A stretch of 64,000 nucleotides of DNA from an uncultured Candidatus Saccharibacteria bacterium (GTDB lineage: Bacteria > Patescibacteriota > Dojkabacteria > SC72), in NCBI GenBank assembly GCA_964514595.1, contig CAZEQZ010000002.1, positions 185,663-249,662 of the forward strand, written 5' to 3'. Position numbers and translations under genes: made by a program. Positions 4,521 through 54,458 of this stretch are shown in pieces (the stretch's first letter is position 1; each line of letters opens with the position of its first letter). A model generated the notes under the pieces. It made no database searches, was not told the DNA's origin, and saw nothing but the letters and a program-made list of their open reading frames with translations.

Positions 4521-5426
4521 CTATTTTTTACGCTTTTTTTGAATCAATATGACCGGAACTACTATCAAGGCTATTACTGGAATGAATACAATCAACCATA
4601 TAATTCCACTCCCAACAAACTTTGCGAAACCAACTAAAGCCCTTATAGCATCCCTCAAGACACCCTCTGGTCTCCATTCATCCTCTACTAGATCTGCACC
4701 TACACTACTTTGAGATATATGCATATATATATACGAATATTTTGTTTGATTTCCTATGTTCTTTAATTCTGCTTCTACCCTCTCAATATTGTACCTAACC
4801 TCATTTAATTCTTTATAAATAGCTAATGTCTCTTCTACAGTTGTAGAATTTCCTAAAAGGGTTACAAACTGAGTTTCTACACTTTTATAATTACTTAATC
4901 TAGCTTCTAAATCTACTACCGTATCTGTCACATCACTCTCACTAATTGAAGAACTTAGAAATTCACCATCCAAATCTTTAAGTCTATTATATAACTCTTC
5001 AAATTTACTCTCTTCCACCTTTATTGTTAAACCAACACCCCTATCTTTCCCTTTTCCATAGTCATTTAGATTGATCACAGAGGCGTTAAATTCAGCCCTG
5101 ACAGCTGTTATCTCATCTAATGATTCATCTATATCATCTACAGCTATATTTATACTACCTGTTCTAATTATGCTTCTTGTTTCATCGGAATATTCATAAG
5201 AATAGCTTTCTTCCTTCATCATGACATCAGGCTCTATATATGCGCTATCCTCATACATCCCTGGGCCCCCATACCCCATTCCATAGCCTCCATAGTAGTC
5301 GTTTGTCGTATTCATATATCCATCTTTTACTTTGTATATCCAAAATCCAGCTAGAAAAACGAGAGGGATAAAGAAAATAATTGCCAAAGATATTAAAACA
5401 ATCTTTAGAGTTTTGTTATTTTTCAT
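4521..5426 (-). CDS. DUF4349-like membrane protein (N-terminal TM, coiled coil, C-terminal TM)
   Basis: The 301-aa protein has an N-terminal hydrophobic helix, a Gly/Tyr-rich low-complexity stretch, the DVTDTVVDLEARL...ELNEVRYNIERVEAEL coiled coil typical of DUF4349, and a C-terminal TM plus KKRKK tail. Confidence 0.5.
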   Translation of the reverse strand: MKNNKTLKIVLISLAIIFFIPLVFLAGFWIYKVKDGYMNTTNDYYGGYGMGYGGPGMYEDSAYIEPDVMMKEESYSYEYSDETRSIIRTGSINIAVDDIDESLDEITAVRAEFNASVINLNDYGKGKDRGVGLTIKVEESKFEELYNRLKDLDGEFLSSSISESDVTDTVVDLEARLSNYKSVETQFVTLLGNSTTVEETLAIYKELNEVRYNIERVEAELKNIGNQTKYSYIYMHISQSSVGADLVEDEWRPEGVLRDAIRALVGFAKFVGSGIIWLIVFIPVIALIVVPVILIQKKRKK

Positions 5427-29859: not shown

Positions 29860-31038
29860 CTATATTTTTACCAAGTATCTTGCACTTACCCACCCTACTA
29901 AATCAGCTCCATACTGTACCTGATACCAACCTTCCTCCTCCCCTAGTAAAATGAAGACAGTACCATCATCTGCACTGTCCAATATTTTACAACTTGACCA
30001 CCTACACTCTCTAATATTCACGAAATTATATGTCGGAGAAGATACTTCCACTAATTGCTTCTCTCCCCGAGAGATTTCAAATTTAACATCAAAAGAGGAT
30101 CCTTCAAATGGCTTTCCTTCAAACTTAAGCAATTCGAACGATTCAGTAGCTTCTCCTAATAAGACTCTTGCTTCCAATTCAAACTCCACCTCCACGGATT
30201 CTCCAGGTAGTATGTTCTTATCCGATACACTCACAGGCTTACTAAAACTTTCCCATTCCTGATTTATTGCAAAGCTACTCTCCTTCCCATCTTTTACAGA
30301 TATATATACTGGATCCCTGTCTGTGAACCAAATAAAGTCATTATTATTCTTAAATTTCACCTTCACCTTTAGCCTTTCTCCTATCTCCAATTGCTCTTCA
30401 TGCACCACCTCTTCTATTCTCGCTCGATATTCTAGGTTCTCCGCTTCATATCCTTCCCAGCCTGAAAGTACTTCCAATACTGAATTAGCAAACTCTCCAG
30501 ATATTTCCTCAGCTGTTATGGTAGATAGTTTTCCTTCTTCCTGGTTAATATTTAGCTTTACTACAGAAAGTTGAGATATTCCCCAATTAGAGGATATCTC
30601 CTCTACCATTTGATTTAAAGAATCGGTAGCCCTATTTGAAAGTATGGAGTTGTTTGACATATATCCTATTGTGACTGCACCTTCCACTTCTCTAAGCTCT
30701 GGATTAGCACCAACACCACCCTCTTTGCCTTGATATATTATCCCATTCTCATCAAGGAGGTATGTATATGGGAGGTCGGAGAAGTGTAGTCTGGTTATAC
30801 TGTAGTAGTAGAGAGTCTTAACCCATTTTGCAGGATCTCTAAGTAGTATGTCGGAATCTGTTGTTACTTGAGTTATGTATATCTTAACTGGATTACTGTA
30901 TATGGTATTAGACTTGTCTGATAGTGAAGTGTCAAATTTCTGACTTTGCGTTGAGTAGTATGAAAATGCCAAAGCAGATGTTGGCTTAAATAGTGCCAAA
31001 GTAAGAAGGAGTGTCAAAAAAAGAATTGTTTTCTTCAT
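29860..31038 (-). CDS. Secreted protein with a degenerate PGRP/amidase_2-like domain and C-terminal bacterial SH3 (SH3b) domain
   Basis: Signal peptide MKKTILFLTLLLTLALFKPTSALA. YTYLLDENGIIYQGKEGGVGAN...TIGYMSNN resembles the amidase_2 core, but the Zn-ligand His residues are replaced. The C-terminal GWYQVQYGADLVGWVSARYL is SH3b-like. Confidence 0.35.
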   Translation of the reverse strand: MKKTILFLTLLLTLALFKPTSALAFSYYSTQSQKFDTSLSDKSNTIYSNPVKIYITQVTTDSDILLRDPAKWVKTLYYYSITRLHFSDLPYTYLLDENGIIYQGKEGGVGANPELREVEGAVTIGYMSNNSILSNRATDSLNQMVEEISSNWGISQLSVVKLNINQEEGKLSTITAEEISGEFANSVLEVLSGWEGYEAENLEYRARIEEVVHEEQLEIGERLKVKVKFKNNNDFIWFTDRDPVYISVKDGKESSFAINQEWESFSKPVSVSDKNILPGESVEVEFELEARVLLGEATESFELLKFEGKPFEGSSFDVKFEISRGEKQLVEVSSPTYNFVNIRECRWSSCKILDSADDGTVFILLGEEEGWYQVQYGADLVGWVSARYLVKI

Positions 31039-31078
31039 TCTAGATATCTTATCAACTATTGTTGTAAATTTGAAGTGA

Positions 31079-32122
31079 TTATTCGGGTGCGGGATCTAGT
31101 AACTCTATCTCTTCTGTTTGCTTCTCTATTAAATATTCTGGATTTATACCACATAGATATACTTGTATTTCAGCAAGGTATGTACTTTTGGTAGAATCCA
31201 GCAGTTTTCCAGTTCCTGTTAATTTATACGCAGGGAAGACATATGAGTAATCATAGTTCATAAATACGTATAAATTATCTACGCCTTCAACTTCCAAAGA
31301 TGAGAGTCTAGCAGAAGAACGTACTAAAATATCTTGTTCCCAAAATCTTTCTTCCACAGAGTTTCTCATAAGGTGCATTGGATATTTTGTAAATTTGAGT
31401 ATCTCATCAACTGATATGGTAGGCATCTTCTGTATGGGAACCAATCCTCTCTCAACATCATGAAGAAGAATTGCAAGTGAATACATTCTATTATCCCCCT
31501 CAATACGAATTTCAAATGCATTTCCCTCTAGATATAAAGATCCATACTTAATACCATCCTTTACAAAGAATCCTTTATATAAGTATGAATTCTCGGACTG
31601 CTTCTTTGTCTCTAAAAGCTCTATCTTCTCAATATTAAAATATGTCTTTAAAAATATATCCAAGTCTTTTGCAGAATTAATTTTCATATCTAAGTTAAGT
31701 CCTGTTTGAGATGTAACATAAAATACTCCTGTGTCTTCATCGTATAAGAATGTGTCTGTTTCAAAGGTCTCGTATAATTGATTCTCGTTTGCAATATAAC
31801 GATCGTCCAAATCGTAGAAGTTCTTTATAAAGTTTCTTGCCACAGAGAGATCTGGCTTGTGTAGCTTATATACCATCTGATACTTATCGAATTCTGAGCT
31901 TTCTCCCTGGAGGTTTAATGTAAAATTATCGCTTAATTCCGCAAATGGACTCTCTATGGAGATTATCTCTCCTGCGGGGATATCTTCTTCAACCTTCTTT
32001 GATTTTAGAAAGATTATTGCAATAACAGATAAACCCAGAACAATTCCTATTATTATATACACACCGTAATTTTTTATTATTTTTTTTATTCTATCCATCT
32101 TATCTAGCAAATCCTTTAACAT
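31079..32122 (-). CDS. Bitopic membrane protein (N-terminal TM anchor, extracytoplasmic domain of about 300 aa), unknown function
   Basis: The single hydrophobic helix VYIIIGIVLGLSVIAIIFL follows a basic N-terminus. No catalytic motif was recognised. Confidence 0.4.
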   Translation of the reverse strand: MLKDLLDKMDRIKKIIKNYGVYIIIGIVLGLSVIAIIFLKSKKVEEDIPAGEIISIESPFAELSDNFTLNLQGESSEFDKYQMVYKLHKPDLSVARNFIKNFYDLDDRYIANENQLYETFETDTFLYDEDTGVFYVTSQTGLNLDMKINSAKDLDIFLKTYFNIEKIELLETKKQSENSYLYKGFFVKDGIKYGSLYLEGNAFEIRIEGDNRMYSLAILLHDVERGLVPIQKMPTISVDEILKFTKYPMHLMRNSVEERFWEQDILVRSSARLSSLEVEGVDNLYVFMNYDYSYVFPAYKLTGTGKLLDSTKSTYLAEIQVYLCGINPEYLIEKQTEEIELLDPAPE

Positions 32123-34649
32123 AACTCTTTATCTCAGAATCTAGTTTAGCTGTGCCCGAACTAGAAATACCTTTAGACCAATCTTCCAAGGTCTGTTGAT
32201 CATATCCTCTAGATAACATTGCATCCCTAATCTGTGTTCCAGATTTCACACCATCTATCGTATGAAATTTATATCCTCCATAATTTCCAGAGATTATCTC
32301 AGCTCCCACTTCCATTCCTAGAGGATTTCCATTTAACCCTCCGCTTCTATACTGTACTAGGTGCGTAACCTCATGGACCATGAGACCTTGGAAGTATGAT
32401 AATCCCGCAGAACCCGCCTTTGAAGAATTACATATTATTCCATTATACCTAGCTACACACCAAGCCCATTCACTATACGTACTAGAGAATGTTCCATCAT
32501 CCACAAAGGTCAAAGAAACTCCACTGAGTCCAAATCTTTCTAGGATACTATCGAAGATTTCTTGATAATCGCCTCCCAATAGTTGCCCTATCATATCCTC
32601 CTTCCCTACGGGAGTCCCCGTGGGATCTATTTCATCTATCATATCAGGAGCACCACATGATACTACTTCAAATGGAGCTACATGAGAATGTACCCCCAAA
32701 AGAGAGCTCCCGAATATGATGACAAATCCCGCAAGAGCAACTATTCCCGCTAGGAAATAAACCAAACCCTCCACACCTATCTTAATAGCGTGAGCACTCA
32801 TCTTCATTAAAGGTTGGGATAGTTTGTATACTAACTCAGAAGCAAGGAAACTAATTAATCCTGCGATAGGAGTTCCTACAACCCCAAGTGCAGACGAAAT
32901 TGCTGTAGTGATACCTTTAACTAAGGTTTGTACCCCTCCTTTCAACATCCAATCCTTTACTAAGGCAACTGCTACCGAATTTTTTATACCCAACAATAGT
33001 ACTTTTCCTACAGCATTTCTAACATGAGAAAGAACATGTTTATTTATTAATCCATCTATTTTATCCCTAATTCTTGATATTGTTCCAAATGTCTTATACA
33101 GGTTAGACAACCTCGCATCTTTTTTTAGAAATTTATCTATCATCTCCATTTGTTGAGTAGATACTCTTCCTGCCAAACTTCGTACATATGCATCATCTCC
33201 CTTCTCTAATTCTGCAAGAAATCTAGTCCAATCGAAATTCGATATCTCTCCTAAAATTTGTTTCTTAAACTTTTCCTGCGATCTATACGCTAGATATCCA
33301 AAGCCCTCTCCATCTATCAATGTCTTAACCCAAGCAGCCGGAGAAAGGTAGTAGACAGAATTCATTTTATCGAAGTATGCCTGCTGGAATCGATTAGTTG
33401 CTTCTTTTGCTGCATGGATCTTCAAACTATGCCCCCTTCTTGTAAATGCTTGCTCTTTAGATGGTTGTAACCAATTAATTTGATTATATTTATCTGCAAA
33501 GAATTTCCCGTTAAGAATATTCCCCATAAGGTTTCCGTCTATAAACAAATCTTTTGCAGAATAATACATTCCTTCCCATTGACCTAATTGCCCTGCAAAA
33601 TCTTCGAATCTAGACATTCTGATATCACCCTGTATGCTTCTCATTGAATTTTTTAGTTCCCTTATCTTCACATGCTTGTCTGGGTCGTTACTTCTTTGTA
33701 GTTGAGATATTGCATTAGAGATACTATTTAAATCTCCCTCTAATTTGTTTCTAAATGCTCTTGCAGCTGTTTGATCATATACATTGGCTACAACATCACT
33801 GGCTCTTTGATATTTCTCTGCCTTATCCATATCCCCCGCCATTCTTGCATCTACTGATTTTTTAGAAAGGTTAGCCTTTTCTAAGACGGTATATAGTTCA
33901 CGATTAACAAGTAATTCGTCTCTTATTTTTTCAAAGTTATTATTACTCAAGTGGGTGGAGTAGCTTTGTCTCCATTTTCTATATTGGTTCCACTTCATAT
34001 CCGCCTGTGCATCCCCTAGAGTACCACCGAACATATTTCTAAACTCCTGTCTTGTGAATTCCCTACTATTAGGATCTAGGTATCTTTGTGCTAATTTCTC
34101 ATTTCTGTATGTCACACCAAAGGTGTCGTATTGAGTTCTCATACCTATTGGTTTTTTTGTAAACTCATCTACTTTACCCCCTCTTCCTGCTGCAACCATT
34201 GCTTCTTGAGTATCCTTATCCAATCCATATTTCTTTGCCCACATGTATCCAACTATACCTCTCATTTCCTCCCCTGCCCAAGCTATTCGTTGCTGTTTTC
34301 TAATACCCTCTATCTTCTTGTATTGAGCATCTATGTATGTGCTCGGATTTTCCATCAACTTTTTCAGCTCTCCAAGATTGAACTTGATATTATCTGGAAC
34401 TCTCTTTCCTACACTTACGGTACCCACATCCACATCGAAGGCGTTATTGAAGGCCTCCATTGTCGTCTTATTTACATATAGGAGGGGATTTTCTAGTACA
34501 GCAGTTAAAGCATCAACCATTTCAGAGGAACCATCTACACCAGTGACCTTAACTGGCTTAACTTTATTGGGAGGCTTTTGGGACTCTTCAAATATGAAAT
34601 CAAAAACCGATCCCAGGGCATCTTCGTATTGCTTCTTTTGCTGTGGCAT
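32100..34649 (-). CDS. Large (849 aa) protein: soluble N-terminal region of about 640 aa, cluster of TM helices, C-terminal HExxH zincin-like domain
   Basis: No signal peptide. Hydrophobic helices around residues 640-730 (GLISFLASELVY, LVYFLAGIVALAGFVIIFGSSLL). Motif GLMVHEVTHLVQY with a downstream Glu (GMEVGAE) near the C-terminus. Confidence 0.45.
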   Translation of the reverse strand: MPQQKKQYEDALGSVFDFIFEESQKPPNKVKPVKVTGVDGSSEMVDALTAVLENPLLYVNKTTMEAFNNAFDVDVGTVSVGKRVPDNIKFNLGELKKLMENPSTYIDAQYKKIEGIRKQQRIAWAGEEMRGIVGYMWAKKYGLDKDTQEAMVAAGRGGKVDEFTKKPIGMRTQYDTFGVTYRNEKLAQRYLDPNSREFTRQEFRNMFGGTLGDAQADMKWNQYRKWRQSYSTHLSNNNFEKIRDELLVNRELYTVLEKANLSKKSVDARMAGDMDKAEKYQRASDVVANVYDQTAARAFRNKLEGDLNSISNAISQLQRSNDPDKHVKIRELKNSMRSIQGDIRMSRFEDFAGQLGQWEGMYYSAKDLFIDGNLMGNILNGKFFADKYNQINWLQPSKEQAFTRRGHSLKIHAAKEATNRFQQAYFDKMNSVYYLSPAAWVKTLIDGEGFGYLAYRSQEKFKKQILGEISNFDWTRFLAELEKGDDAYVRSLAGRVSTQQMEMIDKFLKKDARLSNLYKTFGTISRIRDKIDGLINKHVLSHVRNAVGKVLLLGIKNSVAVALVKDWMLKGGVQTLVKGITTAISSALGVVGTPIAGLISFLASELVYKLSQPLMKMSAHAIKIGVEGLVYFLAGIVALAGFVIIFGSSLLGVHSHVAPFEVVSCGAPDMIDEIDPTGTPVGKEDMIGQLLGGDYQEIFDSILERFGLSGVSLTFVDDGTFSSTYSEWAWCVARYNGIICNSSKAGSAGLSYFQGLMVHEVTHLVQYRSGGLNGNPLGMEVGAEIISGNYGGYKFHTIDGVKSGTQIRDAMLSRGYDQQTLEDWSKGISSSGTAKLDSEIKSYVKGFAR

Positions 34650-34662
34650 AGATATTTAAAAA

Positions 34663-35970
34663 CTATTTAAACATACTTCCAACAAATGGAACTTTTCCAA
34701 ATCCTTCCTTAATTGCCGCAGCTGCATCTGCACCACTCTTGGATGCTGTGGGAGGAATTATTGCTTTTGCCAAGGCAGGAGCTTGAACTGCAGCATAGAT
34801 AGCTATTAATTTTGCTAAAGCGATTAGCATAGGGCCCATATCTCCTATGCTTGCCTGATCACCTGTAAGAGATTTAGGAAAATCTATTGATATGTTTTTT
34901 GTTTCTAGATAGAAGGGTATGTTAACTATGGCAAATGCTATTGGAAAGACTAGGGCATTACGAAATATTGATTTAAATATATTAACTATACTAGCATCAT
35001 TTCCTGGTAAGGAGCCTAACATTATTGATAATGGAGCAACTATCACATTCAACAGTATAGCTAAGTATGATTTAACTAATGTAATCCAAAGCTTTATTGC
35101 TCCAACTAAGGCCGCTCCAGCAATAATTATTCCCAATATAATGGGGATTAATCCGGCTACCGCATTCAGTGTTGCTAACCCCAAGACTATTCCAACTAGA
35201 GATATTGAGGAACCTGTCTGAGCTCCTCCACTCCAAGTTACTGCCCAAATATCATGTATTGGGACCCCACTTCCTAGAAGACTTTTTATTACTGTCATAA
35301 GGACACCGCATATGTCAATAATTACTCCCGCTATGGCAAAACTAAAGGTTACCAAGACTAATGATATTACAACCCTTGGAAGTGTATTACCTAATGTTAC
35401 CAAGGTCTGACCTCCCAGTTTACTTCTAAACATTATCATAAAGCCTACTGCAATCATCACTACAACAAAGGCAAGGTACGCTATATTTCTTGTAAAGGAC
35501 CATATTTCATCAACACCGGTACTCCTAATATCATCATAACCTGAAGCATATATAGATTGTGTCTCTTTATATCCTGGAACCCATTCCCTTGAGAGATGTG
35601 CTATGACATCAATCCTTGGTTGAGAATCAAACATGGCTGTAACTTGACGTTCAGCGGTACCTAATAAACCGTATTTCATCTGATCAGGATAATTTCCTGT
35701 TTGTATCCTAGGATTCGCTTCCGTACACTCTGGACAAAGTATAGCAAGTATGAATTCTCCTATTCCCGTAATGATTTTCCCTACAAACTGGGCTATACTT
35801 TCCCCTACAAAGCCAGTCAGATCTCCAACAAAGGAAACTATATGTTCCCATGTGGTCTTTGTGTCTATGGGTTCACCTAGCGTATCTTGGGCCAGTATAG
35901 GGGAACTTAAGCTTGTGATGAATACAAATAGTGTGGTCATCAATACAACAATTATCCTAAGAGCTTTCAT
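34663..35970 (-). CDS. Polytopic membrane protein, TrbL/VirB6-like topology (signal peptide, extracytoplasmic loop with a Cys pair, about 6 TM helices, Ala-rich C-terminus)
   Basis: Hydropathy pattern. CPECTEANP loop. TM-rich Gly/Ala/Ile core. The family assignment is by architecture only. Confidence 0.35.
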   Translation of the reverse strand: MKALRIIVVLMTTLFVFITSLSSPILAQDTLGEPIDTKTTWEHIVSFVGDLTGFVGESIAQFVGKIITGIGEFILAILCPECTEANPRIQTGNYPDQMKYGLLGTAERQVTAMFDSQPRIDVIAHLSREWVPGYKETQSIYASGYDDIRSTGVDEIWSFTRNIAYLAFVVVMIAVGFMIMFRSKLGGQTLVTLGNTLPRVVISLVLVTFSFAIAGVIIDICGVLMTVIKSLLGSGVPIHDIWAVTWSGGAQTGSSISLVGIVLGLATLNAVAGLIPIILGIIIAGAALVGAIKLWITLVKSYLAILLNVIVAPLSIMLGSLPGNDASIVNIFKSIFRNALVFPIAFAIVNIPFYLETKNISIDFPKSLTGDQASIGDMGPMLIALAKLIAIYAAVQAPALAKAIIPPTASKSGADAAAAIKEGFGKVPFVGSMFK

Positions 35971-35997
35971 ATTTTTATATAATTAAATTTAAAGATA

Positions 35998-37440
35998 TTA
36001 TATTAACAAATAATGCTTTGCTGATTCTCTGTTTAATTCCAAAACTTCATTCCAATACTCTATAAACGTTGGAATAAAGTCTTCTTGACCAGGAGCCTTG
36101 TCTTTAGCCTGCATTCTATAATTCATTAGGAAAGGTGTCGCATCCCATAGACACCACACATCAAATTCTCCTGTTGCTCCATTATCATAAGTTGCTATAC
36201 CACTACATTGTGTAGCTACATAGAACATTAAACTATCTTCAATATTATTAGAGACCTCCTTCTTAGAGGCTGTTTGAAAAGGAGCCTGTGTAGCAAGGTA
36301 TGTGTATGTCATAAAAGCATTAGAACATATACCATTATTACAATCATATGTGTTCCCAAATATTGGTGTCATTTCTACCATGAGACCCCTAGATCTAGGA
36401 CATTTCTCACGCTTAATAGATTTATTCCCCTCTTCATCTATAATTTCAACACCATCTTCATCACAGTAGTCCCATTGATTGGAGCTAAACGTTTGTCTAA
36501 AAAGACCCTTGAAGCGTGTATATATTGATCTTTGGTCACACGCCTTCCATACCCCATCATTAGTACCTAAAAAAGTAACACTAACACTACTCAAACACTC
36601 CGCTTCTCGTTGATAATCATAATTATCTCCTCCTGGGATTTGCTGTCTCGTAAAGCCACCCCCGCTATCTCCCCTCAGATTACTAGCCCCAACGTTGAAA
36701 TCGCTTGTACTAACCTCACGAGGACAGTTACACGCGGGATCATTTTCCGCATTATCTATGTTATATCTTCCATCTCTCTTTTCCTGCTCCTGATTAGCAG
36801 AGACAGTTAATTGACCAGTAACTTCAAATGCCTGTCTTTCAGTAGCTGGCAACTCTTTCACGAAGGCATCGGACTGATATGGAGCCATAGTCTTTTCCAC
36901 TATCGCACCTTCCCACTCTCCACTAGAAGAATACGACGGATCATCCACTCTAATCTGTCTGTTACTATCCTTCATAGTATATGGACCTAACCAGAGAGCG
37001 AGAGGATATGTGACCATAGTAAGTTCAAAATCAACTATATTTTCCACCTCAACTTCATCTCCGGAGAATCCCACAGGATCACCTCCATAATTAGGAACTT
37101 CATAGTGAATCTGTGCACCACCAGATGAGCAAAGCCTTCTCTCCAAATCTACAATATTAGCAGGTTGTCTACACAAAGATGATATCTCTCCCTTAACCTC
37201 TCCTCCCTCTGCATACTCGGTAGCGTTACTATCTTCCAAAAATACATACTCTACATTCTCTGTTACTATATTTTCTTCCCTACTAGGAGAGCATGTTGAG
37301 CACTGTTGCGCATCTTTATTCAACCACCTCCCATCGAACGAAACCTTTATACTTTTAGCTAGGTATACTGAGAAAAGAGCAAAGAATAGCATGCCTAAAA
37401 GAAACAAGATCCCATTTTTCCTACTATTTTTTATACTCAT
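35998..37440 (-). CDS. Secreted cysteine-rich protein (480 aa, about 17 Cys)
   Basis: N-terminal signal anchor (ILFLLGMLFFALFSVYLA). Cys clusters (CSTCSP, PACNCPRE, DYCDEDG, YDCNNGICSN). No known catalytic motif. Confidence 0.4.
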   Translation of the reverse strand: MSIKNSRKNGILFLLGMLFFALFSVYLAKSIKVSFDGRWLNKDAQQCSTCSPSREENIVTENVEYVFLEDSNATEYAEGGEVKGEISSLCRQPANIVDLERRLCSSGGAQIHYEVPNYGGDPVGFSGDEVEVENIVDFELTMVTYPLALWLGPYTMKDSNRQIRVDDPSYSSSGEWEGAIVEKTMAPYQSDAFVKELPATERQAFEVTGQLTVSANQEQEKRDGRYNIDNAENDPACNCPREVSTSDFNVGASNLRGDSGGGFTRQQIPGGDNYDYQREAECLSSVSVTFLGTNDGVWKACDQRSIYTRFKGLFRQTFSSNQWDYCDEDGVEIIDEEGNKSIKREKCPRSRGLMVEMTPIFGNTYDCNNGICSNAFMTYTYLATQAPFQTASKKEVSNNIEDSLMFYVATQCSGIATYDNGATGEFDVWCLWDATPFLMNYRMQAKDKAPGQEDFIPTFIEYWNEVLELNRESAKHYLLI

Positions 37441-39293
37441 AATGCTCTAATCATTTTACCCCCTTTCCTTTGTCTTGTCACACTTCCTTTATATGTGACT
37501 ACCCCTATAGAGATAAGGGCAAAGGAAAGCAATATTAAGTATACTACATTATCCAATATTCCTGTTTTTGGAGTTTCTATCCCCGAATCTACTTCATACT
37601 CTGAATCGTCTGGAGTAACTACTAAATCAGGATTTACACCCGTACTATGTCCTAAGATTCCGTAGTTCTGAAGTAGCTCTACCCTTGTATACCCCACTCC
37701 TGAGCTAGAATTCCCCTCTACGGATATTTCAACATCCCTATCACTTATGCCTTGCATTTTCTCTGTATGTGTACTTGCTGAGAATGTTGTTACCAAATTT
37801 ACATTAAGCGAATCTTCAGACGTATACTCAAAGTATGAGGTACCGTCCTGAACTCTACTTTCGGCTATTGATAGTATCCATTTACCATTCTCATCAACTA
37901 GGGTAGAGAGTTTTAGACTTTCTCCCTTACTTCCTGCACCATCTTCATCCTTAATATGTACCGTAACTACTACTTCCTTATGCTCTGGCATACCATCTAT
38001 CACTCCAGTCACAGATTCGAATGGTGGAGGAGATGTAAGTGTAGAGAAAGTTTTCACTACATATTTATTCCCCCCATTATCGTATTTATTATCCCCTGAT
38101 TCTATCTCAAAGAAATACTCAGTATCTGGTTGTAGTCTACTTAGAACTACAGAGTGGATATAGTAGTTACTTTTTGTTGTAAGGCCATCTCTTTCATCAG
38201 TAGCTTGACTAGACAAAGAATCACGGGAAGTTCCATAGTTAATATGACCTTTCTCTTTATTCTCTGATATCCAAAGAACCGTAAAGCCTGTGTCTGTTAG
38301 GTTTGTTGTTTGCACACTTGCAGCACCAGACACACCCGAGACTGCTGATCCATCTCCCGTGACCATATCTATCCATTGCAAATTATGTACTATCCTAAAT
38401 ACTCTTCCTGTGTTTCCAGTTGGAGTATCATCTGTCTCCTGGGCTGGAGGGGTTGTCGGAGTTGTTGGCGTTGTCGGTTGTGTGGGCTCTTCTGGTTCTG
38501 CTACAAATGCCTCCAACATAGATACAGGAGGAAAGTCGTTGTATAGAGAGGAATTATCGCCAATTGTTAAGGCATACACATCCTTCAATTTACCACTGCT
38601 ATCAAATAGTTCGGAGTATGTACCTTCCTGTACTGCACCTTTATTAGGACCGGAGATAGCAACAAGAACTATGTTAGTAGAATTGGTAACTACAATAGGG
38701 GTCTTATTGGCAATACTTCTAAATGCAGAGAGGTCTATAACCCAATTACCTCCTGTGGGAATGGTGGTTGATACAGGATACGCAGATTTATCTTTAAGAA
38801 GGGCATATATTATTACATCGTCTCCCACTACCCCCTTAATTCCTCCATGTATGGGATTGGGAGTTGCAGACGTCTCTGTTATTGGAGCAGTTTTGAATGC
38901 AAAGTTTTTGTTTCCTTCACTACGATACTTCTCTCTATCCGATACTATTACAAATTCGTATTGAGTATTTGGATCTAAGTCTTCAATATCGATATGGTGC
39001 GTGTATCTTCTTCTATTACCTCTTTTTGTATCAACAATGGGACTTTTTTCTATTCCATTTTGGATAGGTATTACAGAACCAAATGACTGTACATCTGTGA
39101 CCCAGCTTACGGTAACGGCACTTGTAGTTAATTTACTAATAACAACATTACGAGGTTGTGCCTCTGCTGACGCTCTCGTTATGAGTTGGTATGCTTGGTA
39201 TGATGCAAAAACTACCAAAGGTATTCCTATTAACAGTATCCCTATTATCGTGAGATCTCTTCTTCTTTTACTAGGTACAGTAGCTATTCTCAT
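37437..39293 (-). CDS. Cell-surface protein: N-terminal TM, two purple-acid-phosphatase-N-type fibronectin-III-like domains, Pro/Thr linker, C-terminal TM anchor with basic tail
   Basis: VVISKLTTSAVTVSWVTD...YTHHIDIEDLDPNTQYEFVI and FTVLWISENKEKGHINYG...YYIHSVVLSRLQPDTEYFFEI. PTQPTTPTTPTTPP linker. The C-terminal ETPKTG + LILLSFALISIGVV + RQRKGGK. Confidence 0.5.
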   Translation of the reverse strand: MRIATVPSKRRRDLTIIGILLIGIPLVVFASYQAYQLITRASAEAQPRNVVISKLTTSAVTVSWVTDVQSFGSVIPIQNGIEKSPIVDTKRGNRRRYTHHIDIEDLDPNTQYEFVIVSDREKYRSEGNKNFAFKTAPITETSATPNPIHGGIKGVVGDDVIIYALLKDKSAYPVSTTIPTGGNWVIDLSAFRSIANKTPIVVTNSTNIVLVAISGPNKGAVQEGTYSELFDSSGKLKDVYALTIGDNSSLYNDFPPVSMLEAFVAEPEEPTQPTTPTTPTTPPAQETDDTPTGNTGRVFRIVHNLQWIDMVTGDGSAVSGVSGAASVQTTNLTDTGFTVLWISENKEKGHINYGTSRDSLSSQATDERDGLTTKSNYYIHSVVLSRLQPDTEYFFEIESGDNKYDNGGNKYVVKTFSTLTSPPPFESVTGVIDGMPEHKEVVVTVHIKDEDGAGSKGESLKLSTLVDENGKWILSIAESRVQDGTSYFEYTSEDSLNVNLVTTFSASTHTEKMQGISDRDVEISVEGNSSSGVGYTRVELLQNYGILGHSTGVNPDLVVTPDDSEYEVDSGIETPKTGILDNVVYLILLSFALISIGVVTYKGSVTRQRKGGKMIRAL

Positions 39294-39341
39294 TAATGAT
39301 TATGATACCTGTAATAAGGCTAGAAAACAATCTATGTATTA

Positions 39342-42300
39342 TTATCTTACACTAGGATGCCAGTTACCTACACCCTTTATAACCCTTACGAAGTATGATC
39401 TTTGTTTTTCTATAGGAAAATCAAAGCCGTAGGTTTGAGCACTACCCTCTACAGAAGTATCTCTTTGAAAACCTTCATACGACCCCTTACTCTCTTGCCA
39501 CCTAGTAACATTATCTGCATCAAAATCTATACCTTTGTAGTTAGCTATGTCTTCTAATAATGATTTAGCTGTGTATGATTTAGCCTTAGAACCGTATACC
39601 CCTACTAAGTTCCATCCAGGAATTAGTAGTATGGGTGCAGAATCTCCTATTTGTTCATATTTTATTTCTTTACCAAAGAGAGAAACTCTTATATCCTTTT
39701 TAACATTTAACAGATATCCCTCACCTGGGAGTATCCTAAAGTCATTCTGATCATAGTTACCTGCATTAGCTCCAACTGAGATCCATTTACCATTTTCTAA
39801 TTTTGATATAGAGGAAACAGAATTACCAATGACACTGTTTAGATATTTAATAAGACCGGAAGCTTTATTTAATTCAGATCTTTCATTTATAAAAGGAAAG
39901 GATATCAAATTGAAACCTTTTTTAAGGTCATACCTGTATTCTCTTTGTATTGTAATAACCTCTAAGGTTTCAAAATCTTTACTTAGATTAGTATCTCCTG
40001 AGTCTATTATTCCGTTACCATTAGAGTCCAAGTATACATCAGCACCTTTTGAGTCTGTATCATTTATTATAGCTAAGTAATAATCACCATTTACATTGAA
40101 TATATGCACCCCTCTTCCTACCCTCTCCAAGATGTCTTCTTTTGTATTTATAATATATGACTCGAACTCCTCTGTCTCTTCAGCAAAAACTTTCCCTAAG
40201 ATACTAAATCCTTTGCTCTCAAAGCTTAAGCTTTTATCTTCATTTGTATTCTGAATACTACACCTAGTGTATCTCCCTGAGCCCGAGCCACATACTCCAA
40301 AGTCTTCTATATACGTTTTTATAGCAAAATTTCTATCTTGTGTTGCTTTCATACTCTCGTATTTTTCCTGAGTAATAGGGACCCACTCTTCCTCTGCTGT
40401 AAATTCGTTAATTAATATAGTGGCTACTACAACTCCCCCTACCACAAGAGCTGCTGTTCCCAATCCGACACCCGTTGTTGCCGCTGCTGCTTCTGTAGTT
40501 ATATATATTGTTGGCGCCTGACTAACCGCAAGAGCTGAAGTAGAAGTAGATGCGGCTGTGGTAGCTAGCGATGAGCCTGTGTATACTGTAAGTGCTTTGG
40601 TCCCTACGTAGGGGACAATAGGATACAAACTAGCAGAGGCATATGGCATATCATCAAGTATCTTCTGTATTTCAGGATCTGGTTCTTTTGCATTATTTTC
40701 TTTAAACTTTGCCCATAGTCGATCTACTGCACCTATACTATCACAGTGATAATACATACCTGTATCCGCATTATGATATAGAGTACCCGCTTGCCCATCA
40801 CATTCCTTTCCTGACAAATTGTCAGCCGGAGGGACTTGTAGAAAAGGCATTGCCTGAGCACCAGCTTCTGCATCTATACCAACCCCTTCATCTGGACTCA
40901 TAGAAATACCGTACTCATGTCCTTCGATCCCCCAACGTTTCGTTTCTCCATTACATTTAAGACTACCATCTATGGTAACATAGCCATCACTAAACCAACA
41001 TTTATATGTATAACTATAACAATCCCGTGTAGTACCTGTATTAAATCCTCCACATAGACCTCTACTGTCGGCTTCATCCGCCATTCTATCCCTTAATTCA
41101 TCTGTATATTTATCTTCCGTATCTGGATGTACTTTCACTCTTCCATCTGGGGTACATAAGCACATTTGTGCTGGACCGATGGGTTTTTGTTCATTTGCAC
41201 ACGCACAATCACACTCTTGACTATTACTATATCCACACATCCCCATGTGTCCACAAATATCACCTACACATGTACCTTGTACTCTATTAAAATTAATCTC
41301 ACAATCAGAAGTAAAAACGTCAAAGGTCCCAAGACCAGAAACATTAATTCTTTTACACATTGGAATATCTACCCCATCTATTTTTTTTGTACATGCGTCG
41401 TTAAAACAACTTCCCAGTTCACAACTAACTGAACCTTGCCCCCCACTTGTATCTCTTCCATTAGAACCTGCAAATATCTGTTCATTTATATCCGCATCTA
41501 TAGGGTCCGTACAAGAACCATCAAGCGGATCTAAACAATACCCACCATCATTACTAGGTTCAAATTTAGGAGTACAATCGGGATCCCCCCACCCCAATCT
41601 AGAATCACTACAAACTTCACATTGATTATTATCTCCTCCATCTGTATCCTCCGCACTCACTCCGAAAACAAAAGCTCTTAAATCTATACCATTGAAATCC
41701 TTATTTGTATTAACTACCTCCTTATTCTCTTTCCCAAAAGAATTACCCTCATATATGACACTCTCATCTAACTCATCATCCATTCTCATATCTATAGCCT
41801 TTGCAGGTGCCTTATTATATACATCTATCTCAGTACTCCATCTCCCTTTCCACGTATTCTCTATCGTTAACTTAAGTTTTATATATGTACCTTCATAATC
41901 CTTTACACTATCCCAAAAAGTTGTACCATCCTCCATATATGCATTCATAATATCTAAATACCATCCACCTTCTTCATTTGTAATAGATGAAATCATCTCA
42001 GATTCCACTTGATATATCTCTTCATATACCGTCGCATACACTATTGCATCAGAAGGCCTCTCATAGCCAACCACATCATCTACGTAGTACCTAACAACTC
42101 CATATGCTGGTTCAGGAGTCCTAATTTCCTCAATCTCTTTTCCTGTCTTAAAAGAGTATTCCCCAGTATTCTCAGAAGAAACCCTCTTAAACACATTCCC
42201 ATCCCCAATCATGAAATAGTACTCTTTATTAGATTCCAAACCTCGTATGGTAGCATGATGGACATAATATTCACCCATATCTGTAACTACTATATCGGTA

Positions 42301-42731
42301 AATATCTCCCCTGCATCCACACTACTACTTCCTTCCTCTGATACTTTCTCAGAATTCCTCTGTGCCTCATCTAATTCAGCCTTAGTATAGTCTCTATCAT
42401 CATATGCTAACAAAGAGTTTCCAATCTTGGGCATAAAGGGAAGAATAAAATTTCTCTCCTGATACATAACCATCCCAGGAGTTGGCTCTTCTGTAATCCA
42501 AGATACTGTTGCTGATCCTGCAGTCACATTACTAACCATTACCCTATATGGCACAAAAGAGGATGCCTTATACCATCCCCATATACCTATTCCTATAACG
42601 GCTACTAAACAAACAACTAATACAGGAATAATTACTTTAAGGAAATTAAACTTACCCTTTTCTTTAACCTCAACTTGCTGAACCTGCGGTTCTACGACTG
42701 AAGGAGGAGTCTCTTGATTACCTTCGTACAT
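39342..42731 (-). CDS. Giant (1129 aa) surface protein: N-terminal TM, PAP-N-type Fn3-like domain, long Cys-rich extracellular module, internal hydrophobic segment, C-terminal domain
   Basis: MVSNVTAGSATVSWITEEPTPGMVMYQE...YYVHHATIRGLESNKEYYFMIGDG is paralogous to the neighbouring 618-aa protein. More than 40 Cys lie between residues about 365-660. A TM-like GVGLGTAALVVGGVVVATIL segment follows. Confidence 0.5.
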   Translation of the reverse strand: MYEGNQETPPSVVEPQVQQVEVKEKGKFNFLKVIIPVLVVCLVAVIGIGIWGWYKASSFVPYRVMVSNVTAGSATVSWITEEPTPGMVMYQERNFILPFMPKIGNSLLAYDDRDYTKAELDEAQRNSEKVSEEGSSSVDAGEIFTDIVVTDMGEYYVHHATIRGLESNKEYYFMIGDGNVFKRVSSENTGEYSFKTGKEIEEIRTPEPAYGVVRYYVDDVVGYERPSDAIVYATVYEEIYQVESEMISSITNEEGGWYLDIMNAYMEDGTTFWDSVKDYEGTYIKLKLTIENTWKGRWSTEIDVYNKAPAKAIDMRMDDELDESVIYEGNSFGKENKEVVNTNKDFNGIDLRAFVFGVSAEDTDGGDNNQCEVCSDSRLGWGDPDCTPKFEPSNDGGYCLDPLDGSCTDPIDADINEQIFAGSNGRDTSGGQGSVSCELGSCFNDACTKKIDGVDIPMCKRINVSGLGTFDVFTSDCEINFNRVQGTCVGDICGHMGMCGYSNSQECDCACANEQKPIGPAQMCLCTPDGRVKVHPDTEDKYTDELRDRMADEADSRGLCGGFNTGTTRDCYSYTYKCWFSDGYVTIDGSLKCNGETKRWGIEGHEYGISMSPDEGVGIDAEAGAQAMPFLQVPPADNLSGKECDGQAGTLYHNADTGMYYHCDSIGAVDRLWAKFKENNAKEPDPEIQKILDDMPYASASLYPIVPYVGTKALTVYTGSSLATTAASTSTSALAVSQAPTIYITTEAAAATTGVGLGTAALVVGGVVVATILINEFTAEEEWVPITQEKYESMKATQDRNFAIKTYIEDFGVCGSGSGRYTRCSIQNTNEDKSLSFESKGFSILGKVFAEETEEFESYIINTKEDILERVGRGVHIFNVNGDYYLAIINDTDSKGADVYLDSNGNGIIDSGDTNLSKDFETLEVITIQREYRYDLKKGFNLISFPFINERSELNKASGLIKYLNSVIGNSVSSISKLENGKWISVGANAGNYDQNDFRILPGEGYLLNVKKDIRVSLFGKEIKYEQIGDSAPILLIPGWNLVGVYGSKAKSYTAKSLLEDIANYKGIDFDADNVTRWQESKGSYEGFQRDTSVEGSAQTYGFDFPIEKQRSYFVRVIKGVGNWHPSVR

Positions 42732-53584: not shown

Positions 53585-53663
53585 AACAGAATGATTTTAG
53601 CAAAGTATGTATATATTTGCTACCCATTTTATCTACAATCTTAAATCTGCTAATATCTATACT

Positions 53664-54458
53664 ATGGAAAATAGTTGGAACGTACAAACACATAGTGAAA
53701 ACAAAGTACGAAGAATACGCATATGGATATCTGCTGTATTGGCACTGTCTGGTTTAGTTATAGTTTCCAGCCAGGTTATACCTTTGACAAAATCATACGT
53801 GGAGGGAGTGGTGGAACAAAGGAGAGTTGACATAAAGGTGGATCCTGTACCAGAGTCGTATAAAAAATATATAGAAGAAGAGTTCGCATATTATGATCCT
53901 GGGAAGAGCTACTTTGCAAATCTTTCCCAGCAGTTGGGGAATTTAGACATTACAGGACAATACTCATATAACCCAGATACCAAGACACAAAGAGAAGTTC
54001 TAATAGACAGAGAGTACAAGACGGATATGTCCGTCACTATTGAGAGTGTAGGGATTAAAAATATTAAAATATCATCGAACGTGGAGAGTTCTAATGAATC
54101 TGTATACAATCAATATCTTAAAAATGGTGTTGCCCACTTTAAAGGTACACCTCTTCCGGGAGATGGAGGAAATTCGTTCATATATGGGCATAGCGCTGTT
54201 GAATCATTTTTTAGTAGACATAGGGATTTGCCTGAAACAATATTTTCTAGACTGAATGATATAGATATTGGACAAAAGGTTGTTGTAAATAGAGAGGATA
54301 AAGTATTAGAATATATCGTAAGGAACAAGAAGATTGTAGATCCTGATGATTTTACAATCCTACAACCTTTACACAACAAAGAAACAGTAACATTAATGAC
54401 TTGTTGGCCTTTGGGTATAGGAACTAAGAGATTAATAGTAGTTGCTGAAAGGAGATAA
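53664..54458 (+). CDS. Sortase (cysteine transpeptidase); the ORF is open from 53607, but the second Met at 53664 is the more plausible start
   Basis: N-terminal TM anchor. Catalytic His in NSFIYGHSAV. TLxTC motif VTLMTCWP. Conserved Arg nine residues later (TKRLIVVAE). Confidence 0.7.
   Translation: MENSWNVQTHSENKVRRIRIWISAVLALSGLVIVSSQVIPLTKSYVEGVVEQRRVDIKVDPVPESYKKYIEEEFAYYDPGKSYFANLSQQLGNLDITGQYSYNPDTKTQREVLIDREYKTDMSVTIESVGIKNIKISSNVESSNESVYNQYLKNGVAHFKGTPLPGDGGNSFIYGHSAVESFFSRHRDLPETIFSRLNDIDIGQKVVVNREDKVLEYIVRNKKIVDPDDFTILQPLHNKETVTLMTCWPLGIGTKRLIVVAERR

Follow-up and report, generated by a model that had tools for sequence, protein, structure and literature searches.

A class C-like sortase of Candidatus Dojkabacteria and a probable [T/I]PxTG sorting signal on an Fn3 surface protein

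Introduction

Bacteria of the candidate phyla radiation (CPR, or Patescibacteria) are believed to spend their lives attached to other cells, and their surface proteins are for this reason of prime interest. Here we ask which protein might be handled by the sortase of one such bacterium. The DNA analysed, called the window below, is the whole of a 64,000-nucleotide stretch from an uncultured organism deposited as Candidatus Saccharibacteria and placed by GTDB in the Dojkabacteria (SC72; GenBank assembly GCA_964514595.1, contig CAZEQZ010000002.1, forward-strand positions 185,663 to 249,662). An earlier interpretation made from the letters alone, referred to here as the sequence-only reading, had noted a sortase gene in this window with no canonical LPXTG substrate to accompany it, and had proposed that a 618-amino acid (aa) Fn3 protein encoded elsewhere in the window carries a non-canonical sorting signal.

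Source-named homologs of the sortase and of the Fn3 protein all come from Candidatus Dojkabacteria (WS6, a CPR lineage), and identical copies of both proteins are carried by contigs of ∼760 kb. Over half of CPR genomes have been reported to encode a sortase, with near-ubiquity in Microgenomates (PMC6744442). The searchable literature yielded no account of what the sortases of Dojkabacteria or other CPR act on, or of the motifs involved.

Results

The C-terminus of the Fn3 protein

A six-frame scan of the window for the motifs xPxT[GASN], xAxTG and NPxT[NGS], placed 20-60 aa before a stop codon and accompanied by a hydrophobic stretch, returned the Fn3 protein alone and no LPXTG protein, as the sequence-only reading had claimed. 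The Fn3 protein ends, again as described there, in a TPKTG pentapeptide followed by a 23-residue hydrophobic helix and a 17-residue K/R-rich tail and, together with an N-terminal hydrophobic helix that is a predicted signal peptide or signal anchor, this gives the tripartite architecture of a sortase substrate. By analogy with characterised enzymes, cleavage of the pentapeptide is predicted between T577 and G578. The further claim that no other protein in the window combines a motif, a helix and a basic tail stood for PxTG itself and failed for the other two elements, which are shared by a DUF4349 protein (4521-5426, minus strand) ending IIWLIVFIPVIALIVVPVILIQKKRKK. This protein was rejected as a second substrate, as it is without PxTG and its helix lies within the DUF4349 domain. 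With a strongly hydrophobic helix followed by QKKRKK, it has a tail anchor that mimics a sorting signal.

An AlphaFold2 (AF2) model of the Fn3 protein, with a mean predicted local distance difference test (pLDDT) score of 76, contains four beta-sandwich domains, disordered segments at residues 261-316 and 528-578, and a helix at residues 583-605, and the top Foldseek matches are tandem FnIII arrays. Read from its N-terminus, the protein consists of a helix, two beta-sandwich domains, a Pro/Thr-rich linker, two more such domains, a disordered stalk and the signal. The stalk, of ∼45 residues, is a candidate wall-spanning segment.

A search for homologs of the Fn3 protein gave 141 at E<=0.001, of which the best 120 were examined and divided into 69 long forms and ∼50 short forms. 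In all 69 long forms the pentapeptide abuts the start of the helix, behind which a basic tail follows. TPKTG is the commonest version (37 sequences), ahead of IPKTG (15), TPQTG (9), TPETG (6), IPNTG (1) and TPQAG (1); position 1 is accordingly T in 53 sequences, I in 16 and Leu in none. P, T and G are invariant in a 26-sequence subset in which the residues preceding them vary freely, and the extension that follows the Gly is conserved among the long forms as [I/L/V][F/L][D/E]. Column conservation is 0.33-0.48 in the stalk and 0.26-0.48 over the last 100 residues, compared with ∼0.7 in the domains.

Since the surrounding stalk is disordered and poorly conserved, selection appears to act on the pentapeptide itself, and its retention in all long forms beside the linker, where conservation is lowest in the protein, argues against chance. 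The position of the conserved pentapeptide, which ends the stalk and abuts the C-terminal helix and basic tail, points to the layout of a sortase substrate. The sequence-only reading had allowed that this tail might simply be a transmembrane anchor; the conservation of [T/I]PxTG inside a hypervariable stalk indicates that it is very probably a sortase signal with T or I at position 1 rather than a plain tail anchor. The motif of this lineage would thus have a beta-branched residue (T/I), not Leu, at position 1, together with the [I/L/V][F/L][D/E] extension.

The basic tail has two further features. An invariant Met lies five codons before the stop, with a Shine-Dalgarno (SD)-like sequence, AAAGGGGGT (GGGGG), upstream of it (37437-37475, minus strand), and the stop codon of the Fn3 gene and the ATG of the 480-aa gene that follows it overlap (TTATGA). 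Because of this SD-like sequence and the overlapping start, part of the conservation of the tail may reflect translational coupling or nucleotide-level constraint.

Related signals in other proteins and other CPR genomes

A profile built from the 51-residue signal gave 14 matches at E<=1e-3 among 1.84 billion representative sequences, mostly orthologs and their fragments, and was too insensitive for counting unrelated substrates. It also picked up two other proteins, P0250 (STPQTGLFD followed by a helix) and P0253 (EIPQTGIFD followed by a helix). GTDB genomes were also scanned at the DNA level for the pattern [T/I/M/L/F/V/A/P/S]-P-[K/Q]-T-G-x-F-D; the matches, at least 120, are a sample and not a census. 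Because K or Q at position 3 and x-F-D after the Gly were part of the pattern, the conservation of "FD" in its matches is by design. A C-terminal helix after a long open reading frame (ORF) made 13 of the 120 matches listed credible, and 11 of these 13 are in CPR-type proteins (seven from Saccharibacteria, two from Dojkabacteria, one from Roizmanbacteria and one from a further metagenome-assembled genome with the same protein family). Among the 11 CPR matches listed, position 1 is I in four, L in three (L119, L159 and L185), V in two, and A and S in one each, which points to a relaxed position 1 favouring beta-branched or small residues and not to a new, strict motif. When viral contigs were scanned as a control with a closely related DNA pattern, in which position 3 was restricted to K and Phe was written as TTY, none of the 91 matches was a credible signal.

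Two kinds of pattern match were rejected as false positives, namely YggT-like proteins (TPQTGMFDFSP...) and proteins with a peptidoglycan-binding domain (LPQTGxFD). The former are small membrane proteins of Chloroflexi (L118, L135, L137, L209 and L217) in which [T/L/M]P[K/Q]TGMFDFSP is followed by a helix, and they constitute a recurrent false positive of LPXTG scans.

One of the two Dojkabacteria matches (L166) is an ortholog of the Fn3 protein with IPKTG. The other (L201) is an unrelated Cys-rich protein of ∼465 aa that ends ITIPQTGIFDSTLG, in which IPQTGIFD is followed by a helix and a basic tail. A metagenome search with this single protein gave no matches; a search using an alignment together with the pattern [ITV]P[QK]TG[IL]FD[SN] retrieved relatives, often as tandem pairs, with T/V/I/A-PQTGIFD, although their position-1 counts are biased against Leu because the search pattern excluded it. 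L201, L104, P0250, P0253 and the Saccharibacteria proteins belong to a single superfamily with a conserved cytoplasmic FExK tail in common, and independent support for a modular signal therefore amounts to two to four protein families.

A large CPR family (P0250 and the Saccharibacteria-type L112, L148, L168, L257-L268 and L271-L273) has a DUF11-like C-terminal domain, then xPQTG[IL]FD and a helix, and an unusually long conserved cytoplasmic tail of 40-50 aa (...NPKKYFEEKILRKK). In the Dojkabacteria branch of this family the tail is shorter and retains the FExK core. No sortase was found near a substrate in the 18 loci of 8 kb checked from the GTDB scan, which were either CPR-labelled or positive for a cell wall sorting signal.

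A sortase nearest to class C

The ORF at 53607-54458 (plus strand) matches the Pfam family Sortase PF04203 (E=7.6e-24, 84.3 bits against a cut-off of 26.6) and the generic sortase model TIGR01076 (72.5 bits against a cut-off of 39.35). The catalytic His, Cys and Arg, within IYGHS, TLMTCWP and GTKRLIVV respectively, are invariant across an alignment of 26 homologs of 60-88% identity and, like the TLxTC motif, align with the triad of solved sortases. On this evidence the gene encodes a sortase with its catalytic residues intact, in keeping with the sequence-only reading. That reading had placed the start at 53607, which probably does not hold. The longest ORF from this position encodes 283 aa, the N-terminal 19 of which are unconserved, and the 459 homologs found, nearly all of them 264-265 aa long and named as sortases from Candidatus Dojkabacteria, mostly begin MENSWNV. 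As an independent gene call on an identical contig is also of 264 aa, the true start is most likely 53664 (Table 1). The protein ends ...RLIVVAERR (GTKRLIVVAERR) right after the strand that carries the Arg, without a C-terminal helix, and the window contains no second sortase-like ORF.

Among the NCBIfam class models, class C (NF033745) scores best at 86.8 bits, below its cut-off of 160, which leaves the enzyme closest to class C yet unclassified. Scores and cut-offs for the other models are 66.8/140 for SrtD, 64.1/165 for class D, 45.2/160 for class E, 32.7/158 for class GN and 28.6/166 for class F, and no class A or class B model matched at E<=0.01. The closest sequences in the PDB are likewise class C enzymes, led by Actinomyces oris SrtC2 (8t28; E=5e-13, or 1.8e-15 by profile), followed by one class D enzyme and then by class A at E values of 1e-6 to 1e-3; the class A structures match weakly, and across the C-terminal 70 residues only. 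The shared motif, TLMTCWPLGIGTKRLIV, may be compared with TLVTCTPLGINTHRIL in class C.

The structural check on class that had been proposed came out partly in line with these searches. All 50 of the top Foldseek matches listed against the PDB are sortases, with class C leading (E down to 7.5e-12, probability 1.00), in accordance with the eight-stranded beta-barrel fold of the sortase superfamily. The AF2 model, which has a long N-terminal helix at residues 12-56, is only of moderate quality (mean pLDDT 64.6), and its beta-barrel matches class C, A and D structures alike. In the numbering of the 264-aa protein, Y77, D78 and P79 of a YYDPG sequence are invariant in the 26 homologs, G80 is kept in >=90% and the first Tyr is Y or F. 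In the model this sequence falls in a loop between helices H64-75 and H83-91, where local pLDDT is low, and it is possibly a lid-like element, with Gly at the position of the class C lid aromatic.

The sortase gene heads a block that encodes a solute-binding protein, a membrane protein with a Big domain (Big_7), alaS, ruvX, yceG/mltG and an LCP transferase, with dnaJ divergent from it, and the order dnaJ, sortase, solute-binding protein, membrane protein, alaS, ruvX, yceG, LCP is kept where sortase identity is just 66%. In our reading the enzyme serves the lineage as its general (housekeeping) sortase and falls in an unclassified, Dojkabacteria-wide clade nearest to class C.

A different role is suggested by the class C likeness itself, namely that this is a true pilus-polymerising sortase with the Fn3 protein as its polymerised, pilin-like subunit. 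Its closest relatives by sequence and fold are of that class, the invariant loop between the N-terminal helices resembles a lid, and I or T at position 1 of the signal recalls the pilin signals IPQTG, IPKTG and IPNTG (PMC3493515). We nevertheless consider this very improbable, because the class C model falls so far short of its cut-off and because the gene lies in a housekeeping block, its neighbours being housekeeping and envelope genes with no pilus island at the locus. The Fn3 protein was rejected as a pilin on its own features, as a YPK-type pilin motif is absent from the ten orthologs checked and the fold is that of tandem FnIII domains, not of CnaA/CnaB pilin domains.

Genomic setting

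The features of the two genes are collected in Table 1. The window has a low G+C content (31-39%) and mainly housekeeping gene content, including a ribosomal-protein block, EF-G, IF-2, NusA, PNPase, UvrD, AlaRS and DnaJ; it is ordinary chromosome and not a mobile element.

Table 1. Positions in the window of the sortase gene, the Fn3 gene and their features
Feature	Position	Strand	Basis or remark
618-aa Fn3 protein, candidate sortase substrate	37437..39293	-	Pfam fn3 and Pur_ac_phosph_N
N-terminal hydrophobic helix of Fn3 protein, then ASA/EAQ	39204..39248	-	Sequence; N-terminal region highly conserved in alignment
Variable disordered stalk, residues 528-573	37575..37712	-	pLDDT <50 over residues 528-578
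TPKTG pentapeptide, residues 574-578	37560..37574	-	Preceded by ...SGIE
Hydrophobic helix of probable sorting signal, ILDNVVYLILLSFALISIGVVTY, 23 residues	37491..37559	-	Starts with conserved [I/L/V][F/L][D/E]
Basic cytoplasmic tail, KGSVTRQRKGGKMIRAL, 17 residues, 6 K/R	37440..37490	-	Sequence
Sortase gene, probable coding sequence of 264 aa	53664..54458	+	Homolog lengths; gene call on identical contig
N-terminal membrane anchor of sortase, IRIWISAVLALSGLVIVSSQVIPL	53715..53786	+	Read from sequence
Invariant YYDPG loop of sortase	53889..53903	+	26-homolog alignment; between two N-terminal helices
Catalytic His (IYGHS)	54189..54191	+	H176 invariant in 26 homologs; aligns with class C His
Catalytic Cys (TLMTCWP)	54402..54404	+	C247 invariant in 26 homologs; TLxTC aligns with class C TLVTCTP
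Catalytic Arg (GTKRLIVV)	54429..54431	+	R256 invariant in 26 homologs; aligns with class C Arg (INTHRILL)

The Fn3 gene belongs to a cluster of seven genes (29860-42731, minus strand) that is found in the same order in a distant Dojkabacteria contig (L005, 6492-19387). The cluster encodes a 1129-aa Fn3-like protein, the 618-aa Fn3 protein, a 480-aa protein, a 435-aa polytopic membrane protein, proteins of 849 and 347 aa, and a 392-aa SH3 protein, for most of which an N-terminal hydrophobic segment is predicted and family matches are few or absent; an ortholog of the 849-aa protein has a weak match to Peptidase_M23. Genomes with the short form of the Fn3 protein have an extra ORF of 100-109 aa between a 1040-aa gene and the Fn3 gene (L005, 9661-9963; L006, 2882-3211; L007, 353-682), for which the window has no space beside its own Fn3 gene. 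In the translated L005 copy of this ORF, an N-terminal helix and a coiled region are accompanied by a basic C-terminus.

Both GC skew and AT skew change sign at ∼54 kb in the window, and the large genes switch strand at the dnaJ/sortase intergenic region (∼53585-53663), those to the left lying on the minus strand and those to the right on the plus strand. This could be a replication-related switch or a plain effect of coding-strand composition. A type IV secretion or conjugation-like module is indicated ∼9 kb past the right end of the window by PrgI-like (weak) and TraC-like genes (L223, 19704-20942). In related Dojkabacteria genomes a RuBisCO large-subunit gene and groES/groEL adjoin infB (L001/L002, 4409-5833), and no such genes were noticed in the equivalent part of the window.

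Discussion

The question posed by this locus was which protein its sortase might act upon. The explanation that we favour, and regard as probable, is that the enzyme represents a Dojkabacteria-wide clade nearest to class C and used for housekeeping, and that the 618-aa Fn3 protein is one of its substrates. Drawing on the established sortase mechanism and on the sequence features described above, the Fn3 protein would be exported and held in the membrane by its C-terminal helix and basic tail. Attack of the catalytic Cys on the bond between T and G of [T/I]PxTG would then give a thioacyl intermediate, to be resolved by an amine of the peptidoglycan precursor with transfer of the protein to the wall, where four beta-sandwich domains would be displayed on the disordered stalk. 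We infer that it is this sortase, and not one from another part of the genome, that cleaves the Fn3 signal, and the cleavage site and wall acceptor are assigned in the same way.

A number of observations weigh against this explanation. The structural model of the sortase is of low confidence, its gene lies 16 kb from that of the Fn3 protein and shares no operon with it, and the curated LPXTG-anchor hidden Markov models (HMMs; TIGR01167/PF00746) match neither the full Fn3 protein at E<=0.01 nor its isolated tail at E<=10. Roughly 50 of the best 120 of the 141 orthologs are the short forms, which lack the whole signal, being 519-558 aa long and ending ...LSNYGVI ∼70 residues before the long-form C-terminus, where the long forms go on with variable linker sequence and the signal, and one of them (P0204) shares a 46,326-bp contig with an intact sortase (P0056) in the same synteny. 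The invariant Met and conserved basic pattern of the Fn3 tail go beyond the needs of a disposable stop-transfer tail, and a conserved FExK tail such as that of the second family is unexpected in a segment that sortase would discard. Finally, the sequence of the source genome that was covered, comprising the window and ∼10 kb on either side from identical contigs, amounts to ∼84 kb of ∼760 kb (∼11%), which leaves room for a second sortase or for LPXTG substrates.

Several of these points would be expected if the Fn3 C-terminus were only an uncleaved tail anchor, the TPKTG-like pentapeptide having a structural or juxtamembrane function and the sortase serving other proteins. Such an anchor would fit the absence of any match to the LPXTG HMMs, the retention of sortase where the signal is absent, and the conservation of the Met, the K/R pattern, the [IL][FL]D extension and, in the second family, 25-50 residues of cytoplasmic FExK tail. 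We think it unlikely, in view of a pentapeptide whose P, T and G are (near-)invariant within a hypervariable disordered linker, which recurs at the same position in an unrelated protein family, and which forms part of the exact tripartite arrangement of a sortase signal in a genome with a catalytically intact sortase. Moreover, part of the conservation of the Fn3 tail may be owed to the SD-like GGGGG and the overlapping start of the next gene.

Retention of an intact sortase where the Fn3 ortholog has no signal implies that the enzyme is kept independently of the Fn3 protein and has other substrates, and the pairing of sortase and Fn3 protein is not exclusive but one-to-many at best. No further candidate signal was found in the window and the ∼20 kb of identical-contig flanks, together about a tenth of the genome, or in ∼100 kb of syntenic Dojkabacteria loci. 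The signal might conversely be real yet be the target of another sortase, whose gene would lie in a different part of the genome, leaving the enzyme in the window to handle another motif, possibly LPXTG. The small fraction of the genome that was read and the existence of CPR signals with Leu at position 1 give some room for this, and many Gram-positive bacteria are described as having several sortases that differ in motif (PMC3208642). This too is improbable in our judgement, as Dojkabacteria genomes are small (the longest contig with an identical sortase is the one of ∼760 kb), the Dojkabacteria loci that were read contain no second sortase, and the sortase family and the [T/I]PxTG proteins are both strongly conserved across Dojkabacteria.

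A broader proposal, which we put forward tentatively and hold to be more doubtful than the pairing itself, is that Dojkabacteria, and perhaps CPR generally, possess a sortase clade outside classes A-F that recognises an extended signal, xP[K/Q/E]TG-[I/L/V][F/L][D/E], with T/I/V/A/S preferred at position 1. If this is true, the covalently wall-anchored surface proteome of these uncultivated episymbionts would become predictable from sequence. For annotation, the present case suggests that standard LPXTG models may miss CPR sortase substrates, and a rule consisting of xP[KQE]TG-[ILV][FL][DE] followed by a helix and a basic tail offers a useful improvement in their recovery as well as a question of enzyme specificity. 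A divergent, class C-like housekeeping sortase with an LPXTG-like signal in an uncultivated lineage is of modest interest.

Comparison with known sortase systems

The best sequence and fold matches to the Dojkabacteria sortase are class C enzymes, namely A. oris SrtC2 (8t28), Clostridium perfringens SrtC (6ixz/7d6t) and SrtC1/C2 of group B Streptococcus (GBS). Common to both are the TLxTC-P-(L/Y)G-I-x-T-x-R-L motif and N-terminal helices before the barrel, and class C substrates often have I, V, Y or F instead of L at position 1, as in the GBS pilin signals IPNTG, FPKTG, IPKTG and IPQTG (PMC3493515). In contrast to class C, the catalytic His of the Dojkabacteria enzyme is followed by GHSA-type rather than GHRG-type sequence, and it has DPG where class C lids carry DP[F/W/Y] (PMC3493515). 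It is also without the C-terminal membrane helix and the pilus gene cluster of class C systems, and its candidate substrate is without the YPK-type pilin motif in the orthologs checked.

In its use of the signal the enzyme is closer to SrtB of Clostridioides difficile, the single sortase of that organism, which cuts SPKTG, PPKTG and SPQTG between T and G and leaves LPETG uncut (PMC4155245). Each would be the general sortase of its lineage, with signals that have a small, non-Leu residue at position 1, and SPKTG differs from TPKTG by Ser against Thr alone. However, the C. difficile enzyme belongs to class B, of which the Dojkabacteria sortase, nearest to class C, has no match, and the C. difficile signals continue after the Gly with D/K whereas those of Dojkabacteria continue with [IL][FL]D. 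Class A enzymes and their LPXTG substrates (TIGR01167/PF00746) share with the present system an inferred role in general wall anchoring, the tripartite signal, the His-Cys-Arg triad and a single N-terminal membrane anchor, and differ from it in the signal, which in Dojkabacteria has T or I at position 1 and is missed by the LPXTG-anchor HMMs.

The identical pentapeptide has also been annotated before. In MGAS2096_Spy1156, a Cna-like surface protein of Streptococcus pyogenes, TPKTG is described as a cell-wall attachment domain (PMC1949102) and is followed, as here, by a membrane span and a charged tail. That case concerns a single mobile-element protein in a Firmicute whose other substrates use LPXTG, whereas T or I at position 1 is the rule for a whole family of Dojkabacteria orthologs. 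The description of the signal as non-canonical in the sequence-only reading is thus justified in part, by the complete absence of Leu from position 1 of the long forms and by the failure of the LPXTG models to recognise the tail, and overstated in part, since the departure is mild and IPKTG/IPQTG/IPNTG, (S/P)PXTG and TPKTG all have precedents. To conclude on a lineage-specific sortase specificity, as was suggested there, would go beyond the present evidence; other CPR signals from the GTDB scan do have Leu at position 1. The chemistry, the architecture and first positions other than Leu are all established, and T/I-PxTG is a mild, precedented variation on them that involves no new mechanism.

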